DNA of 64,000 bases from an uncultured delta proteobacterium (GTDB lineage: Bacteria; Desulfobacterota; Binatia; UBA9968). Numbering within the stretch: the first letter of the stretch is position 1; every line of letters begins with the position of its first letter. Positions 31,607 to 39,483 of the stretch are shown one piece after another. The notes under the pieces are model-generated. The model was not told the origin of the DNA. It saw nothing but the letters and a program-made list of their open reading frames with translations, and did not search any database. The DNA is taken from the NCBI GenBank assembly GCA_963728565.1, contig CAVSLC010000023.1:96001-160000 (forward strand), in the 5' to 3' direction. The position numbers and the translations under genes are program-made.

Positions 31607-32194
31607 GCTGGGCTTCGCCTGTCCGGCGCAGAGCTGATGCACAGCCGCTGGCGCGCAGGGTTCTCGGTATCGATCCCGGTTCGGCAATCACCGGGTGGGG
31701 GGTCGTTGAGGCGGACAGGCACTTCATTGATCCATCTGGCGCATGGCACGGTGATTACGGCGGGCACTCAGGGGCAGGCGGCTCGGCTGGAGCGCATTTA
31801 CCGCGGCCTTGAGGAAGTGATCGATTCCTATAATCCGGATGGTGTTTGCGTCGAGCGGATTTTTTTCGCCCGAAACGCGCAGAGCGCGCTTAAGCTCGGT
31901 CAGGCGCGCGGCGTAGCCATTCTTGCCGCCGCGCGACGGAGCTTGGCAGTTCATGAGTATGCCGCCGTTGAGATCAAGGCCGCGGTGGTAGGCTACGGCC
32001 ATGCCACTAAACAGCAGGTACAAATGATGATTGCGTCTTTGCTGCGGCTTCGCGGCAAGTTGCCGGCCGACGCCGCGGACGCGCTTGCCGCGGCTATTTG
32101 CCATCTTCATATGCAGGTGTTGCGCGCGCGTCTCATCGAAGCCCTGCCAAGAACCATTGCGCCGTTGCGGCCGCGCAAGTCGATCCTTCCTTGA
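31603..32194 (+). CDS. ruvC: Crossover junction endodeoxyribonuclease RuvC, frameshifted near 31711
   Basis: VLGIDPG...TGWGVVE in one frame, then CVERIFF, KLGQARG and [12 protein letters not shown] in the next; one extra G at 31711. Confidence 0.9.
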
Positions 32195-32236: not shown

Positions 32237-32830
32237 GTGATCGCTCAAATCAGCGGCACTCTGGCGCACAAGGTTGCAGGAGAAATCGTCGTCGATGTCG
32301 GCGGAGTCGGTTATCAGGTCTTCATCCCGCTCAATGTCTTTTATCATCTGCCGGAGATCGGCGCGCCGGTCCGGCTGCATATTCACACTCACTTGCGCGA
32401 GGATGCCCTACAGCTTTTCGGCTTCCAGGAACCGGCGGAAAAACAAGTTTTCTTGCAACTCAACGGCGTTGCCGGCATCGGGCCTAAACTTGCGCTAAAC
32501 ATTTTGTCGGGAATCCCCGCCGATGAACTCACCCGTGCAATCAAGGGAGGCGATCAGTTGCGCTTGGTATCGATCCCTGGCGTGGGCAAGAAACTTGCGG
32601 AGCGCATGATCGTCGAGCTTCGTGATCGCTTTGCGCTTCTCGAAGCTCAGGGCACAGAAACTCCGGCGCAAGGGCGCGACCCGCAGCTGCTCCAAGACGC
32701 TGTTTCGGCTCTTGTTAACCTGGGCTATCGTAAAGTGGAAGTTGAAAAGAACGTGCGTGACTGCGTTCAAGCGGGCAATCACAGTCTCGAGCAGGTGATT
32801 AAAGAAGTACTTCGGCGCATGAGTCGCTGA
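32237..32830 (+). CDS. ruvA: Holliday junction branch migration protein RuvA
   Basis: [44 protein letters not shown]. Confidence 0.97.
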
Positions 32831-32838
32831 CACTGATT

Positions 32839-33912
32839 ATGGCCCACTCACCCATCATCGATTCGGACAAATCCTCGGAATCGCGGGAGATCTCGCCGGC
32901 GCGAAGCGATGAGGATCTAAACTACGAGGTAAATCTGCGGCCCCGTGGATTCGAGGAATACGTCGGCCAAGATCGCGTCAAAGAAAACCTTAAAGTAGCC
33001 ATCGAGGCAGCCCGCGGTCGTGGCGAGGTTTTGGACCACCTTTTGTTTCATGGCCCGCCAGGATTAGGAAAAACATCCCTGGCCTACATCATCGCCCGTG
33101 AGATGGGCGTCAATATCAAAGGGACTTCAGGGCCGGTTATCGAACGTGCCGGTGATCTGGCGGCGATTCTCACTAATTTGGAGGAAGGCGATATCTTGTT
33201 CATCGATGAAATTCATCGCCTCAACCATATTGTCGAAGAGGTTCTATATCCCGCCATGGAAGACTTTCAAATCGATATCATGATTGGACAAGGTCCGGCG
33301 GCCCGATCCATCAAGCTCGAGTTGAAGCCATTTACTTTGATTGGTGCAACGACAAGATCAGGTCTGCTGACCTCGCCGCTGCGGGATCGCTTCGGCCTGA
33401 GCTTCCGGTTGGATTTTTATTCACCGGAAACCCTTGCTGATCTTCTCCAGCGCTCAGCTGTTATTCTCGGCGTGGCTGGCGAACAGGACGGAATCGCCGA
33501 GATCGCGCGGCGGTCGCGCGGCACCCCACGAATCGCCAACCGCCTGCTACGCCGTGTGCGCGACTATGCGCAGGTCAAAGCAGCCGGACGAATTACGCTC
33601 GCGGTGACGGTCGAAGCGTTACAGATGTTGGAGGTTGACTCCATTGGCCTCGATAAAATGGATACCATGTTGGTATTGACCCTGATCGAAAAGTTCTCCG
33701 GAGGACCGGTTGGAATCGAGACTCTGGCAGCGGCCATTGGCGAAGAAAAAGACACCATTGAAGATGTCTATGAGCCATTTTTGATTCAGGCGGGTTTCAT
33801 CCAACGAACGCCTAGAGGGCGTATGGCGACGCCCTTGGCTTACCATCACTTCGGCCAAAAACCTAAGGGACAGAAGGGCAGTGCTCCGAAGAACCAACCT
33901 AGTTTGTTTTGA
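32839..33912 (+). CDS. ruvB: Holliday junction DNA helicase RuvB
   Basis: [42 protein letters not shown]. Confidence 0.98.
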
Positions 33913-33957
33913 AGTAGCAACGACCTGAAATCCTTCCCAACCAGCGGATCGAACCCT

Positions 33958-34170
33958 ATGCCTGAGTTCGGTAGAACTTTGATCATTCTGGGGGTCGCAA
34001 TCATTGCCGTCGGAGTACTGTTTACATTTGGTGGAAAAATCCCTTGGCTGGGGCATTTGCCGGGTGATATCTACATCCAGCGAGGTCGCTTCAGTTTTTA
34101 CTTTCCCATCACCACGTGCATTGTTATCAGCATTCTCATCAGCCTTGTTCTCTATCTCTTTAGGAGATAA
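33958..34170 (+). CDS. DUF2905 family small membrane protein
   Basis: WLGHLPGDI...FYFPITTCI motif between two TM helices. Confidence 0.88.
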   Translation: MPEFGRTLIILGVAIIAVGVLFTFGGKIPWLGHLPGDIYIQRGRFSFYFPITTCIVISILISLVLYLFRR

Positions 34171-34204
34171 AATTCCTCTTGCATTTTAATCTCTTAGCAA
34201 GGCC

Positions 34205-36439
34205 ATGGGCAAAACCTTCAAAACCGAACAGCAGATCAGCGACACGCCCACGTTGGATGAAACTAAACGGCGAAAGCGTGAAGGACTGGCGATTCTCATC
34301 ACTTCACTGGTGGTGCTGGCGTTCGCATTCTTCGAGGTGCAGCTTCCCGATGTTTCCTCGGAATATTCTCTCAGCAATAACATAGTTTTCTTTCTCTTAA
34401 TCAACATCAACATCATTCTTCTGATTCTCCTGGTTTTTCTGGTCGTCAGAAACCTGGTGAAGCTGGTATTCGAACGCAAACGGCGGATCCTCGGCTCGCG
34501 ACTTAGGGTTCGCCTGGTGATTGCATTTGTCGGCCTATCGCTGATTCCGACACTGTTGCTGTTCGTCATTGCCGGGGGATTCGTCACCCGCTCCTTTGAA
34601 AGGTGGTTCGATATACAGGTCGAGACCGCGCTTCAGGGATCTTTGGAAATCGGCCAGACCTATTATCAAAACTCGGCAAACAACGCGCTTTTCTATGCAC
34701 GGCAGCTGAGCCGGCGCGTCACTGAACAAGAGCTGTTCGAGATCGGCCGGCGGAGCGATCTTAAAGAATTTATCCAGATCAAGCAGCGTGAGTACAATCT
34801 CGGGACTGTGGAATTATTTTCACCAGATCACCTGCCGGTAGTAGTGGCTTTCAATGACCAGGTACCCACTGGAGTTAGCATCAAGGCTGAAGCCGATTTC
34901 CTTAACCGCGCGCTGCGCGGCCTGGAAGTCACTCGAACTCAGGCTTTTGGCGAGGGCGACGTTATTCGCGGCGGTGTTCCGATCTATGACAGCGGCAAGC
35001 GGATTCAGGGAGTCGTCGTAGTCGATTATTACGTGCCGAAGAGCATCACCAAACGCGCGCTTGAAATCTCCCGGTCCTATGAGCAGTACAAACACCTTGG
35101 TTTTCTGAAGAATCCGGTGAAAAACAGTTACATTCTGACGCTGCTATTAATTACCCTGGTGATTATCTTCGCCGCGACTTGGTTCGGCCTTTATCTTGCC
35201 AAAGGAATCACGATCCCGATTCAGCAGGTGGCAGCGGGGACTCACGAAGTCGCTCATGGCAACTGGGATTATCAAATTGAGGCGGCCGGCGACGACGAGT
35301 TAGGAACCTTGGTTGAGTCTTTCAACCAGATGACCCGAGACTTAAAGAAGAGCAACCTGGAATTGTTGCGCCGCGGCAAGTTCGTTGAAACACTTCTCGC
35401 TAATATTACCGCAGGAGTCATTGCTGTCGATCCGAATGGCAAGATCACTTCTTGGAACAAGGCGGCCGAACAAATGTTAGGTGTGGATGGTTCTGATGCT
35501 CTCGGAAAATCCTACAGGGAAGCGTTTGAAACCGAGCCGCTAATGGTCATGCGCGACTTGATCAACAACCTCAAAGATCGCGAAAGCAGCGAGACTGAAT
35601 TGCAGATACAGCTACCGGACCATCTCCTTACCGTATTCGCGACCGCCGCTACCCTCAGAGATGATGCTAATGACAGCTTAGGTATCATGATTTTTCTCGA
35701 AGACATTACCCAGATTCAAAAAGTACAGAGGATGGAAGCGTGGCGCGAAGTGGCGCGGCGAATCGCGCACGAAATCAAGAATCCGCTCACGCCGATACAG
35801 CTCTCGGCCGAGAGACTGCGCAAACGCTATGCTAAGCTGTTGCAAGGGGATGGCGCGGTACTGGACAAATGCACGACGACGATCATCCAGCAGGTGGTCG
35901 AGCTCAAGAATCTGGTGAATGAGTTTTCGCAATTCGCAAGACTACCTACGGCTCAGCCGGTGCCCAACGACCTAAACGTGATTGTTCAGGACGCGCTATT
36001 CCTGTTTAAGGAAGGACATAACCATATCGATTTTGAATTCCGGCAGGGAGAGTTGCCGGCGCTGGAGCTCGATCAGGAGCAAATCAAACGGGTAATGATC
36101 AACTTATTAGACAACGCCGTGGCCGCCGTTGGCGGCCACGGCCATGTGCAGATATCGACTGCTTATGATTGCACTCGGAACACGGTCTACCTTGAAGTTG
36201 CCGACGATGGTTGCGGCATGGCGGCGGAAGCTCGAGTTAGAATATTCGAGCCTGGATTTTCCACAAAAAAACAGGGTACCGGTCTGGGGCTCACCATCGT
36301 CAATCAAATTGTCGAAGATCATCGAGGTTATATTCGGGTGCGGAACAACGAACCACGCGGCACAAGGTTCGTGATAGAGTTTCCGGTGCGGGAGCAGGGC
36401 GCGCTACGCGAGTTTAAAAGGAAGGCTGCGCAGCTATGA
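34205..36439 (+). CDS. ntrY: NtrY-type sensor histidine kinase (TM, periplasmic, HAMP, PAS, HisKA, HATPase)
   Basis: GSRLRVRLV, WFD, HAMP DDELGTLVESFNQMT, PAS NKAAEQML, H-box AWREVARRIAHEIKNPLTPIQLSAERL, G boxes DDGCG and GTGLGL. Confidence 0.9.
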   Translation: MGKTFKTEQQISDTPTLDETKRRKREGLAILITSLVVLAFAFFEVQLPDVSSEYSLSNNIVFFLLININIILLILLVFLVVRNLVKLVFERKRRILGSRLRVRLVIAFVGLSLIPTLLLFVIAGGFVTRSFERWFDIQVETALQGSLEIGQTYYQNSANNALFYARQLSRRVTEQELFEIGRRSDLKEFIQIKQREYNLGTVELFSPDHLPVVVAFNDQVPTGVSIKAEADFLNRALRGLEVTRTQAFGEGDVIRGGVPIYDSGKRIQGVVVVDYYVPKSITKRALEISRSYEQYKHLGFLKNPVKNSYILTLLLITLVIIFAATWFGLYLAKGITIPIQQVAAGTHEVAHGNWDYQIEAAGDDELGTLVESFNQMTRDLKKSNLELLRRGKFVETLLANITAGVIAVDPNGKITSWNKAAEQMLGVDGSDALGKSYREAFETEPLMVMRDLINNLKDRESSETELQIQLPDHLLTVFATAATLRDDANDSLGIMIFLEDITQIQKVQRMEAWREVARRIAHEIKNPLTPIQLSAERLRKRYAKLLQGDGAVLDKCTTTIIQQVVELKNLVNEFSQFARLPTAQPVPNDLNVIVQDALFLFKEGHNHIDFEFRQGELPALELDQEQIKRVMINLLDNAVAAVGGHGHVQISTAYDCTRNTVYLEVADDGCGMAAEARVRIFEPGFSTKKQGTGLGLTIVNQIVEDHRGYIRVRNNEPRGTRFVIEFPVREQGALREFKRKAAQL

Positions 36440-37754
36440 AAAATGGAGGGGCGGTGAAGGAGTTATCATCTCAGAAAACCATCCTTGTTGTCGATGACGA
36501 GGACAAGGTTCGGGAATCGGTTAAAGAAGTGCTGACGGACGAGGGATATCGGGTACTCGATACCGCTGATGCCACTTGCGTCCTGGAAATGATCGAAGCG
36601 GAGCAACCTGGGCTTGTGCTGCTCGACATCTGGATGCCGAAAATCGATGGTATTGGCTTGCTCAAAGAAATCAAGAGCAAGAACCTTCAACCAATGTAGT
36701 GATGATCTCCGGGCACGGAAATATCCACACGGCGGTGACCGCAACTAAATTTGGCGCTTTCGATTTTATCGAAAAGCCGGTCTCGCTCGACGGTCTGCTT
36801 CATACCGTGCAACGCGCCCTGGGCGAGCTCCCTGTACCTCAGAGCCTCTCCGAAATCGGCCAGCGCCATGGCGCCGAGGACGCAGACTCAGTGAGTACAG
36901 CTCCGCGGATAGTCACATCCGCCGAACCGATCCGACAAAAGACCTTGAGAAAAAGCGTGGTGAGTTCAGGTCAAGGATTGCATTCAGGTATTAAAACAGG
37001 ATTGATTCTGCATCCGCTCCCGCCAAATAGCGGCATCTTATTCGAGGGTATCTCAGGTGATGTCAGCGTACCTGCGCATTTAGATTATGTCGGATCAACG
37101 GGATTCGCGACATCATTGAGCCATCGCGGTTTTACGGTTGCGACCGTAGAGCATTTTTTGGCGGTCCTCCATAGTTACGGAATTACGAACTTGCTGGTGA
37201 AAGTTCAAGGCGAGGTTCCGATCTTGGATGGATCGGCGGCGGAGTTTTGCGAACTCATCGAGGAAGCTGGGCTGCACGAGCAAGACGAAAGCTGGTCAAG
37301 AATCGTCATCGATCGTCCTTATCGCATCGGTGACGACGGAGGAGAATGGATTAGTATTGAACCAGCGGAGACGTTTTCGGTCCACTACGTTCTGAAGTAT
37401 CCGAAACCGGTCGGCGTGCAGGAATACATATTCACACATCAAAGTCCGACTTCGTTCAAAGAAGAAATTGCGCCGGCAAGGACTTTCGGTTTTCTGCGCG
37501 ATATGGAGAAAATGCAAAAGCTCGGCTTGATCAACGGAGGCAAGCTTAGTAATTGTATCTTGATCGATGATGAGAAGATCGTAAACACCGACTTGCGCTT
37601 TCCGGAGGAATTGGCGCGTCATAAAATACTTGACATTATCGGGGATTTTTATCTGCTGGGAAGACCCATCCGCGGCAGAATCACCGCTCACATGACCGGC
37701 CATTCCGATAACATTGCATTACTTAAAGCTGTTCGCACCGGACTGGGGTTATAG
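36436..37754 (+). CDS. lpxC: Receiver (REC) domain-LpxC fusion protein; apparent 1-base deletion near 36679
   Basis: REC: ILVVDDE, LVLLDIWMP, then after the frameshift VVMISGHG and GAFDFIEKP. A linker follows, then LpxC: RQKTL...GQGLHSG, TVEHFLA, APARTFGF, RHKILDIIGD, TGH. ATGA overlap with the kinase stop. Confidence 0.88.
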
Positions 37755-37793
37755 GTTCTCTCGTTAAAGTCCCGACGACCCAAGTGGATCGGT

Positions 37794-38243
37794 ATGGATT
37801 CATCTTCGCCTTATTCCAGATTGTTCACGATCAACGAAGCGAACGCCCTTTTGCCTATAGTGCGTCCGACCATCGAACGCATTCTGGAGATCATACGGCG
37901 CCTCCGGGCCAAGAGCGAAATAGTGATTCGCGCGGAGCAGATCGACCCGGAAACGCCCAACCTGATGCGCCGTTTACAGCGCAACGATGAGATCGCCGCC
38001 TTGATCAAGCAGATCAACGACGCTGTCAATGAGATTCAACAACATGGCTGCGTGTGCAAAGGCGTAGAACAAGGATTGCTCGATTTTCCCTGTTTATTGG
38101 GAGAAGAGATTGTCTTTCTTTGTTGGCAATACGGTGAACATGAGATTGCCTACTGGCACAGAATTGAGGACGGTTTTGCCGGCAGGCGCCCATTGTTGGA
38201 CTCGACTGTCAGCGGATCGAGCGGCGGCGGGCCGCTTCACTAA
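37794..38243 (+). CDS. DUF2203 domain protein
   Basis: LFTINEANALLP, GLLDFP, VFLCWQYGE...YWH...GFAGRRP. Confidence 0.88.
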   Translation: MDSSSPYSRLFTINEANALLPIVRPTIERILEIIRRLRAKSEIVIRAEQIDPETPNLMRRLQRNDEIAALIKQINDAVNEIQQHGCVCKGVEQGLLDFPCLLGEEIVFLCWQYGEHEIAYWHRIEDGFAGRRPLLDSTVSGSSGGGPLH

Positions 38244-38336
38244 GCTTCGCCAAATTGGGTTTTCTCCAGTTGTAGTTCCGCGTCAATCTTATTCCGGAGT
38301 TTTCTGGCCTTGTGATTTCCACCGCTGAGCTCGAAT

Positions 38337-39483
38337 TTGGCCGAGCTGTCACAGCGCATCAAGAATGAAGCGCAAAGGCTCGGCTTTGAACTCGTTGGCA
38401 TCTCGCCAGTGCGGCTGCCGCCGCACGAGGAGTCGTTCGCTGATTGGCTGCGGAAAAAACTTCACGGTCATCTCGATTATATGGAGCGAACCGAGCTTTT
38501 GCGGCGCGATCCAAGGCTGCTTGTCCCCTGGGCAGTGTCAATCATTTCAGTGGGAATGAACTACTACACGCCGTTTAAACGGCCAACCCCGTCAGAACGC
38601 GGGCGCGGCTGGATCTCGCGCTATGCTTGGGGTGATGATTATCATGAGATTATCCGGGATAAATTGAAAACCCTGCTCGTATTTCTTCGTGAGATTGGCG
38701 GCGAGACGGTGGAAGGCAGAAGCTTCGTCGATTCCGCCCCGATTCTGGAGCGGGACTTTGCGGGTACTGCCGGCATAGGATGGATCGGGAAAAATACCCA
38801 GCTGATTTCGCCGAAAAAAGGGTCCTGGTTTTTCCTTGGTGAGTTGTTTACCAGTCTGCCCCTTGCTTATGATCAGGCCATTCGCGACCGCTGCGGTCAA
38901 TGTGACCTGTGCCTAAAAGCCTGCCCTACCGGCGCCTTCATCGGACCCTATCTGTTGGATGCGCGTCGCTGCATCTCCTACCTTACGATCGAGCTCAAGG
39001 GTTTTATTCCACGTCATCTGAGACCCCTTATCGGTAATCACATTTTCGGCTGCGACATCTGCCAGGAAGTCTGTCCTTATAATGTTAAAGCGAATTCCAC
39101 CGATGAACCGACTTACTTGCCGCGCCAAGGTCTTTATGCTCCCGATTTGGTTGCGCTGCTGTCGATCGACCAAGAGGAATTTCGCCGGCGGTTTCGCGGC
39201 AGTCCCATTGTCCGGGCAAAACGACGTGGATTCTTGCGCAATGTAGCCGTGGCGCTTGGCAATAATCGGCGGGCCTGAAGCCGTGCCGGCGCTGACCAAG
39301 GCACTGAATGACGAAGAGCCACTAGTTCGCGGTCATGTCGCATGGGCGCTGGGCCGGATCGGCACATCTGAGGCGCTCGCGACATTGCGGCAGAAATTGG
39401 CTTCAGAAGGTAACTCGGAGGTTAAAAGCGAGATTGAGGAGGCTCTTCGCGAGGCCAGTGAACCTGTCCCTGATCACTTGTAG
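38337..39483 (+). CDS. queG: tRNA epoxyqueuosine(34) reductase QueG with HEAT-repeat tail; frameshift near 39264
   Basis: ISRYAWGDDYH, GWIGKN, CGQCDLCLKACP, FGCDICQEVCP. ALGN|IGGPEAVPAL joins ORF 39256-39483 after removing one A. Confidence 0.93.

Follow-up and report, generated by a model that had tools for sequence, protein, structure and literature searches.

Can a two-component signal act directly on lipid A synthesis, through an enzyme that carries its own receiver domain? The question is raised by a locus in a 64,000-nt stretch of DNA from an uncultured delta proteobacterium of the class Binatia, described as a soil bacterium (contig CAVSLC010000023.1, positions 96,001 to 160,000; the whole stretch is called the window below), in which the gene of an NtrY-type sensor histidine kinase is followed by a gene whose product joins a receiver domain (REC) to LpxC. 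LpxC commits the cell to lipid A; it is an essential, flux-controlling enzyme and a long-standing antibiotic target, and to our knowledge its regulation outside a few proteobacteria is largely open. The signal sensed by NtrY is still debated. A first-pass annotation, made from the letters of the window, had read this pair as a kinase controlling LpxC by phosphorylation. We found that the fusion is real and broader than could be seen from the window sequence alone, and its position behind an NtrY-type kinase suggests that outer-membrane lipid synthesis may be switched directly by a two-component signal. Of the earlier interpretation, the fusion, the NtrX-like receiver, the adjacent NtrY kinase and the conserved sites all stood, and the phospho-switching of LpxC remains a proposal.

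The protein behind the kinase is a receiver joined to a complete LpxC

Two open reading frames (ORFs) cover the fused gene in the window. The first (87 amino acids, 36436..36699) holds VVDDED and LLDIWMP, and the second (392 amino acids, 36576..37754) contains the second half of the receiver from MISGHG to FIEKP, the linker, and LpxC with TVEH, HKILD and TGH, with zero stop codons between the receiver half and LpxC. Every motif quoted for the receiver and LpxC in the first-pass annotation was found in the sequence, as were the stop-free reading frame into LpxC and the ATGA overlap of the two genes. The receiver is split over the two frames in the window assembly, with the break at 36683/36684, and is unbroken in P0001–P0067 and other homologues; the intact product has 439 amino acids. 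A 775-nt contig from a metatranscriptome library spans receiver, linker and LpxC.

Both halves of the receiver matched the Pfam family Response_reg (PF00072, cut-off 30.2 bits), the N-terminal half at positions 1–69 (E 4.7e-18, 65.8 bits) and the C-terminal half at positions 65–110 (E 1.1e-7, 32.5 bits), and the receivers of relatives match it at E 1e-28 to 1e-31. The nearest solved chains were 5m7n (E 3.9e-29) and 4d6x (E 4.4e-28), which we take to be Brucella NtrX structures; the best NtrC-family chain (E 5.7e-22) was about seven orders of magnitude behind, in agreement with the NtrX type assigned earlier. Residue conservation was analysed in 37 full-length REC-LpxC proteins, 30–92% identical to P0006. 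Asp21, Ser92 and Lys114 were present in 37/37, and Asp64, the predicted phospho-acceptor, was Asp in 36 and Asn in P0140. Residue 20 was Asp in 34 and Glu in three, and the aromatic switch residue Phe111 was Phe or Tyr in 34/37. Thus the phospho-site set that the first-pass annotation had listed (the DD pocket, Asp, Ser and Lys) is kept in 36–37 of 37 diverse members, except that residue 20 is Asp or Glu. P0140 neighbours REC-AAA-LpxC proteins in the LpxC tree described below.

The enzyme part had been described as a full LpxC with its zinc and catalytic motifs, and this was borne out: it covered positions 1–266 of 268 of PF03331 (E 4.5e-83), matched LpxC chains of the PDB at E ~1e-50, and had Glu239, His240, His396, Lys397, Asp400, Asp404 and His423 conserved in 37/37 proteins. 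The roles of these seven residues (zinc ligands His, His and Asp; catalytic Glu and His) are presumably those mapped from E. coli. Past the LpxC domain there was a median of 1 residue in fused proteins versus 25 in stand-alone ones, and the window LpxC has no C-terminal tail. Gly189, Tyr248, Lys256, Cys272 and Leu376 are particular to the fused LpxC clade. In the window protein Pfam found no AAA+ domain and no C-terminal Fis-type helix–turn–helix (HTH), LpxC filling the C-terminus.

The linker between the two domains shows little conservation, and its length differs from relative to relative. An AlphaFold2 model built from the 37-row alignment (mean predicted local distance difference test score, pLDDT, 87.2; predicted template modelling score 0.74) gave the receiver a five-fold strand/helix pattern and modelled LpxC confidently, with pLDDT <50 at residues 133–160. 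The alignment and the model put the linker, predicted to be disordered, at nearer 30 than the 40 amino acids first estimated. Complex prediction for the receiver (residues 10–132) against the LpxC domain (160–439) from 37-row alignments gave scores of 0.01 and 0.00, which speak neither for nor against docking.

The window genome (80.55% complete) gave a single LpxC match and no second stand-alone lpxC, and its LpxD, LpxB and LpxK lie together on contig C10. These data support the fused protein as the probable housekeeping LpxC, and as the only one found in the class genomes that carry it. A search for the LapB zinc ribbon gave one match (contig C4), and is uninformative on the LapB pathway, as its control matched 10 of 14 genomes including Gram-positives.

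The fusion is conserved across the class

A search for the REC+LpxC architecture showed that the fusion is real and conserved throughout the class. Among the best 120 database hits, 117 carry both PF03331 and PF00072 in ~407–442 amino acids, under the labels ‘Deltaproteobacteria bacterium’ or ‘Candidatus Binatia bacterium’. All of the nearest 41 genomes (up to order level; unpublished G012 and G018 included) matched through the C-terminal receiver half, linker and LpxC, and 36 had an open frame of at least 434 amino acids; the other five were frameshifted (G000 and G005) or cut by contig ends (G009, G020 and G031). In a class sample of 121 genomes (unpublished G404 included), 119 matched, 112 of them with one uninterrupted match from residue ≤15 to ≥432 and seven in pieces or cut short, and two were without a match. 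A Pfam LpxC search found no second LpxC gene in the 121 class genomes, the two LpxC matches each in G400 and G428 being pieces of one gene. A mis-assembled junction between receiver and LpxC was considered and rejected, the identical junction being present in >100 independent genomes.

Further afield, the ESM Atlas holds 17 named clusters (at least 50 members each) with both families in all members, and a generic LpxC-motif locus search gave at least two fused loci (L041 and L042) among the matches listed. The cluster of P0122, which has the REC-AAA+-LpxC form described below, is named ‘nitrogen regulation response regulator NtrX’ by JGI and LpxC by NCBI, so automatic names hide the fusion. 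Cluster P0123 is labelled Nitrospinota. With this query, no LpxC match at E ≤1e-30 was obtained in seven genomes of the same phylum (family f48, genus g95; 99–100% complete), which may have a divergent LpxC or none.

An NtrY-type kinase adjoins the fused gene

The kinase is of the NtrY type, with the NtrY_N membrane region (36.1 bits; cut-off 23.2) followed by HAMP, PAS, HisKA and HATPase_c, all above their cut-offs. Hydropathy analysis gave four hydrophobic segments (residues ~27–47, 58–82, 103–127 and 308–330), and a loop of ~175 amino acids separates the third from the fourth.

The synteny of ntrY and REC-LpxC is also conserved. In 40/41 relatives, the fused gene is directly preceded on its contig by one NtrY-type kinase (E ≤1e-40), the exception being G033 (81% complete). 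Among 16 loci of more distant families, the kinase is directly 5′ in five and non-adjacent in nine, with contig ends obscuring two; five genomes with an unlinked fused gene have a full-length NtrY-like kinase elsewhere, without a regulator beside it. In those lineages with a non-adjacent kinase, the pairing is putative.

In genomes with a stand-alone LpxC, ntrY is followed by a regulator gene in 5/5, and the regulators scanned carry REC and AAA+ in 3/3 and HTH_8 in 2/3. The gene order is lpxC, DUF4390, ntrY, regulator in G304 and G333, and in G074 a stand-alone lpxC is directly 5′ of ntrY. Among the matches listed, an NtrY-like kinase starts at most ~1.1 kb 3′ of lpxC in 8 of 78 LpxC-only loci, which include records of Desulfonema magnum, Geopsychrobacteraceae, Rokuibacteriota and Acidobacteriota. 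The ntrY-adjacent receivers of L055 and L079 are 51–53% identical to the receiver of P0006, and the other receivers of the window genome are ≤43% identical to it. A DUF4390 gene lies directly 5′ of the NtrY-like kinase at three loci of lineages with a stand-alone LpxC (L039 of G333, L037 of G304 and L038 of G079); in the window a DUF2905 gene, not DUF4390, precedes the kinase.

Exact matches to GGCAC-N5-TTGC, a sigma-54-type motif, were observed ~15–100 nt 5′ of the start of stand-alone lpxC (or of the match) at eight loci, in Acidobacteriota, Nitrospirota and Rokuibacteriota records and in G074, with ~0.03 hits expected in those upstream stretches. As putative promoters, they fit the sigma-54-dependent control of lpxC published for D. 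alaskensis. Near the operon of the window no sigma-54 promoter consensus was found (32000–60000 is empty, and the whole window has 6 matches with ≤1 mismatch versus 5.29 expected), and scans of 32800–38400 for sigma-70 promoters and terminators stayed at chance level.

A REC-AAA+-LpxC form and the probable history of the fusion

The first-pass annotation had placed LpxC where NtrX has its output domains, and a form with the intervening module still present, REC-AAA+-LpxC, exists in other lineages. Among the 150 of 414 matches listed for a phylum-wide sample of 301 genomes, most families had stand-alone LpxC (frames of ~300 amino acids), several families beyond the class had REC-LpxC, and in other families LpxC terminated frames of ~690–840 amino acids. 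Pfam found Response_reg, Sigma54_activat, AAA_lid_14 and LpxC in 5/5 of the long proteins. The AAA+ modules of REC-AAA+-LpxC proteins (n=20) lacked GAFTGA in 20/20 and had the Walker-B Glu replaced in 20/20, with Walker A mostly kept; the regulators of unfused lineages (n=3) had GAFTGA in 2/3 and DE in 3/3. The best 150 representatives at 50% identity (a 166-row tally less 16 added rows) comprised 51 REC-LpxC (many partial), 15 REC-AAA-LpxC, 73 LpxC only, six N-terminally cut AAA-LpxC and five receiver only.

From proteins with at least 245 aligned LpxC residues, 123 LpxC domains were placed in an unrooted maximum-likelihood tree by a quick search; one of its branches had a Shimodaira–Hasegawa-like approximate likelihood-ratio test value of 95. 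On one side were 59 stand-alone proteins and one other; on the other side were all 33 REC-LpxC and 24 REC-AAA-LpxC proteins, four labelled stand-alone and two others. The two fused forms interleave, P0131 for example standing beside P0142. This pattern suggests that the fusion arose once and that a decaying AAA+ module was then lost repeatedly; because the LpxC tree is unrooted, that direction is inferred. An NtrY/NtrX-like pair regulating lpxC transcription would have traded the DNA-binding end of its regulator for the target enzyme, giving REC-AAA+-LpxC, and the idle AAA+ module would then have decayed and been lost several times, giving REC-LpxC. G074 (L024 and L033) has a divergent REC-LpxC with a 10-residue insertion in LpxC, together with the stand-alone LpxC directly 5′ of its NtrY-like kinase.

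Proposed mechanism and its alternatives

Taken together, these results suggest a two-component pair with an enzyme output, in which an NtrY kinase and a presumably translationally coupled 439-residue protein, an NtrX-like receiver tethered to the sole LpxC, form one system and phosphorylation of Asp64 changes LpxC output; we give this reading a probability of roughly 0.65. Direct phospho-control of LpxC is well motivated, since the phospho-site of the receiver and the catalytic residues of LpxC are almost fully conserved. The kinase would sense an envelope-related signal via the PAS domain, the extracytoplasmic loop or the two together, and set the phosphorylation state of Asp64; the phosphorylated or the unphosphorylated receiver would then alter the LpxC activity of the cell, setting lipid A flux at the committed step post-translationally. 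The tether is long, variable and predicted to be disordered, so rigid allostery is unlikely and a reversible contact of the CheB type between receiver and LpxC is favoured. Within this model, reversible docking of the receiver on the LpxC domain, with release on phosphorylation, would be the leading possibility, at somewhat under even odds; receiver dimerisation driven by phosphorylation is a tentative second, proteolytic control of stability is less likely, and recruitment to the membrane-bound kinase is the most doubtful of the four. The fuller account, in which an NtrY/NtrX-type regulator of lpxC swapped its DNA-binding domain for its target enzyme and Asp phosphorylation now switches the sole LpxC post-translationally, appears to us only a little better than an even bet.

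Several observations weigh against the enzyme-output reading. The long, unconserved linker offers no obvious coupling path; the kinase does not adjoin the fused gene in 9/16 loci of distant families; and P0140, with Asn at the acceptor, may be a phosphorylation-independent variant. The four proteins labelled stand-alone within the fused clade could result from truncated gene calls or from secondary loss, and G074 holds both a fused and a stand-alone LpxC. A public run with the exact source strain was not found (best word share 0.54), and the Desulfovibrio kinases DVU2931 and Dde_3000, compared below, may be of another type than NtrY. The four alternatives that follow jointly account for about a third of the probability.

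The first three of these points, namely the disordered, unconserved linker, the nine non-adjacent loci and the Asn of P0140, would also be expected if the receiver were passive or vestigial, serving solubility or scaffolding or surviving as a historical remnant, with LpxC not regulated through it. We regard this as unlikely: the acidic-pocket, Asp, Ser and Lys set is kept in 36–37 of 37 members down to 30% identity, the receiver outlasted the AAA+ module in all lineages that lost the latter, and the kinase adjoins in 40/41 relatives, with the start/stop overlap.

Signals might instead flow in reverse or sideways, with LpxC telling the receiver whether substrate or product is bound, or with the fused protein serving as a phosphate sink or connector in the tuning of NtrY signalling to another regulator, so that the kinase would not control LpxC. 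Single-domain and enzyme-linked receivers are known as phosphate sinks in other systems, and NtrC-family regulators are also numerous in genomes whose fused gene is unlinked. However, searches at E ≤1e-40 detected a single NtrY-type kinase per genome, the operon has no second regulator (in the window ORFs and at the G001 locus), and the next most similar receiver in the genome is 43% identical, compared with 51–53% for ntrY-adjacent receivers elsewhere. The published ancestral logic, from kinase to regulator to lpxC (PMC4045070), also argues against this alternative, which we consider quite improbable.

A real frameshift in this strain would leave the receiver dead and LpxC unregulated, made from an internal start (for example a GTG further 3′ or the ATG in VVMISGHG). 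The deletion is present in the window assembly, and an open frame still spans the C-terminal receiver half and LpxC. The window reads AAGAA-CCT where the 99% identical relative G001 reads AAGAAGCCT, which places a single missing G between 36683 and 36684 rather than at 36679 as first annotated; G004 also carries the base in the alignment. Four public runs, each from a different study (three DNA and one metatranscriptome), supplied contigs that were aligned to 36300–37100; these are 95–99% alike to the window and hence represent other strains than the source. One extra base was present in 5/5 bridging contigs, from all four runs, as a G behind 36683 in four and a C behind 36682 in a second X5 contig. 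The best-matching public run contains 0.54 of the sampled words, so the break is judged from relatives and from contigs of other strains.

Two neighbouring genes are broken in the same manner. In ruvC (ORF 31637..32194), one extra base at 31715 relative to G001 and G004, probably a further assembly indel, puts the N-terminus of RuvC out of frame, while in G001 the start of RuvC is the usual one (...VLGIDPGS...). In queG, one extra C at 39267 relative to the same two genomes parts the epoxyqueuosine reductase from its C-terminal HEAT-like portion (ORFs 38337..39278 and 39256..39483). Both breaks fall within ~8 kb of that in the receiver, and in G001 ruvC, the 439-residue REC-LpxC gene and the 389-residue queG are all whole. 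The window genome consists of 28 contigs; the few-contig assemblies G005 and G400 also show the fused gene in pieces, and many-contig assemblies show it whole. Because both relatives and the five bridging contigs have the extra base, and ruvC and queG are broken alike, the frame break is almost certainly an assembly error and not biology, and a real frameshift is very unlikely. The fusion does not depend on this point, as had been argued from the reading frame; intact proteins of 432–442 amino acids with both domains are plentiful in public data, far more than chance would allow.

The last alternative is that the LpxC-like part of the fusion is a paralogue acting on some other substrate, lipid A being made via a different deacetylase. 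This is suggested by G074, whose divergent fused copy (with the insertion and with Ser for Thr350) stands beside a stand-alone LpxC, but is highly improbable given that no second LpxC was found in the window genome or in the 119 matching genomes of the class, that all catalytic and zinc residues are kept, and that the remainder of the Raetz pathway is present.

If the enzyme-output reading is true, a sole LpxC fused to a receiver across a whole class would be a new regulatory principle, with phosphorylation replacing proteolysis or transcription, and would represent a form of outer-membrane homeostasis that has no relation to the FtsH/LapB paradigm. It would also be a rare documented case of a transcription factor fused with its own target, and the NtrY kinase family would gain a concrete read-out. 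The series from lpxC beside ntrYX to REC-AAA+-LpxC to REC-LpxC would offer a natural example of regulatory wiring collapsing into one polypeptide.

Coordinates and neighbouring genes

Positions in the locus and of the sigma-54-type motifs in other loci are collected in Table 1.

Table 1. Features of the kinase–REC-LpxC locus (window positions) and of sigma-54-type motifs (positions within each named locus)
Feature	Position	Strand	Basis
DUF2905 small membrane protein, directly 5′ of kinase	33958..34170	+	Pfam; same place in G001; context, unit membership not established
NtrY-type sensor histidine kinase, 744 amino acids	34205..36439	+	ORF list, Pfam, hydropathy
NtrY_N of kinase	34292-34684	+	Pfam
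HAMP of kinase	35198-35347	+	Pfam
PAS of kinase	35381-35707	+	Pfam
HisKA of kinase	35741-35944	+	Pfam
Codon of His522 in H-box AHEIKNPL, presumed autophosphorylation site	35768..35770	+	Motif within HisKA match; inferred
HATPase_c of kinase	36071-36391	+	Pfam
ATGA, kinase stop (TGA) overlapping REC-LpxC start (ATG)	36436..36439	+	ORF reading; 4-nt overlap also in G001
REC domain, residues 1 to ~130 of intact protein	36436..36824	+	Pfam Response_reg, both halves
Predicted phospho-acceptor Asp64, codon GAC, in LLDIWMP	36625..36627	+	Motif, alignment of 37 proteins
1-nt deletion, missing G of codon Lys83	36683..36684	+	Alignment to G001 and G004, bridging contigs
Interdomain linker, residues ~131-162	36825..36920	+	Alignment; pLDDT <50 at 133-160
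LpxC (UDP-3-O-acyl-GlcNAc deacetylase) domain, residues 163-439, and stop codon	36921..37754	+	Pfam, PDB search
DUF2203 protein, directly 3′ of REC-LpxC	37794..38243	+	Pfam; same place in G001; context
GGCAC-N5-TTGC site	L033 4871-4884	-	Exact motif
GGCAC-N5-TTGC sites	L051 2910; L053 2929; L058 2944; L059 2905; L068 2975; L100 2942; L109 2961	+	Exact motif

Comparison with known systems

The locus resembles alphaproteobacterial NtrY/NtrX in the architecture of its kinase (NtrY_N, HAMP, PAS, HisKA and HATPase_c), in the order of kinase then regulator, and in a receiver nearest to 5m7n and 4d6x. It differs in its output, as NtrX is a REC-AAA+-HTH protein acting on transcription whereas the window protein ends in an enzyme, with neither AAA+ nor HTH. 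NtrYX is tied to lpxC and lipopolysaccharide levels in R. sphaeroides and C. crescentus (PMC7240162, PMC12444477), and in R. sphaeroides loss of ntrYX raised lpxC mRNA 8.8-fold and lipopolysaccharide with it (PMC7240162).

Two-component control dedicated to LpxC has a parallel in Desulfovibrio, with DVU2931/DVU2934 and Dde_3000/Dde_3003. DVU2934 of D. vulgaris, whose gene shares an operon with that of the kinase DVU2931, binds only upstream of lpxC, its single target (PMC3333781). The orthologous operon of S. fumaroxidans has lpxC directly 5′ of it (PMC3333781), an order that matches the lpxC-DUF4390-ntrY-regulator clusters seen here. In D. alaskensis, a mutant of the kinase Dde_3000 raises only lpxC, via the sigma-54 activator Dde_3003 (PMC4045070). 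Unlike the window pair, the Desulfovibrio system exerts its control at a sigma-54 promoter, by way of a DNA-binding regulator (PMC4045070).

Enterobacterial control of LpxC by FtsH, LapB and YejM, and the other routes reviewed (PMC12444477, PMC13333357), differ in using degradation or partner proteins, and the fused LpxC proteins are without a C-terminal tail. Neither review (PMC13333357 being from 2026) mentions the fusion or a response regulator, and PMC13333357 also makes no mention of a receiver, two-component systems or NtrY. No description of a receiver–LpxC fusion was found in the literature searched, supplementary orthologue tables lying outside the search.

REC-LpxC would be an enzymatic-output response regulator, uncharacterised as far as the literature searches reach. 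It shares with CheB and other regulators of this kind (GGDEF, HD-GYP and PP2C) the succession of receiver, flexible linker and catalytic domain. The active site of CheB is blocked by its receiver as long as this is unphosphorylated, and docking in REC-LpxC is proposed by analogy. What sets the window protein apart from the CheB-type regulators is its output enzyme, which would carry out a housekeeping biosynthetic step as the sole copy in the genome.

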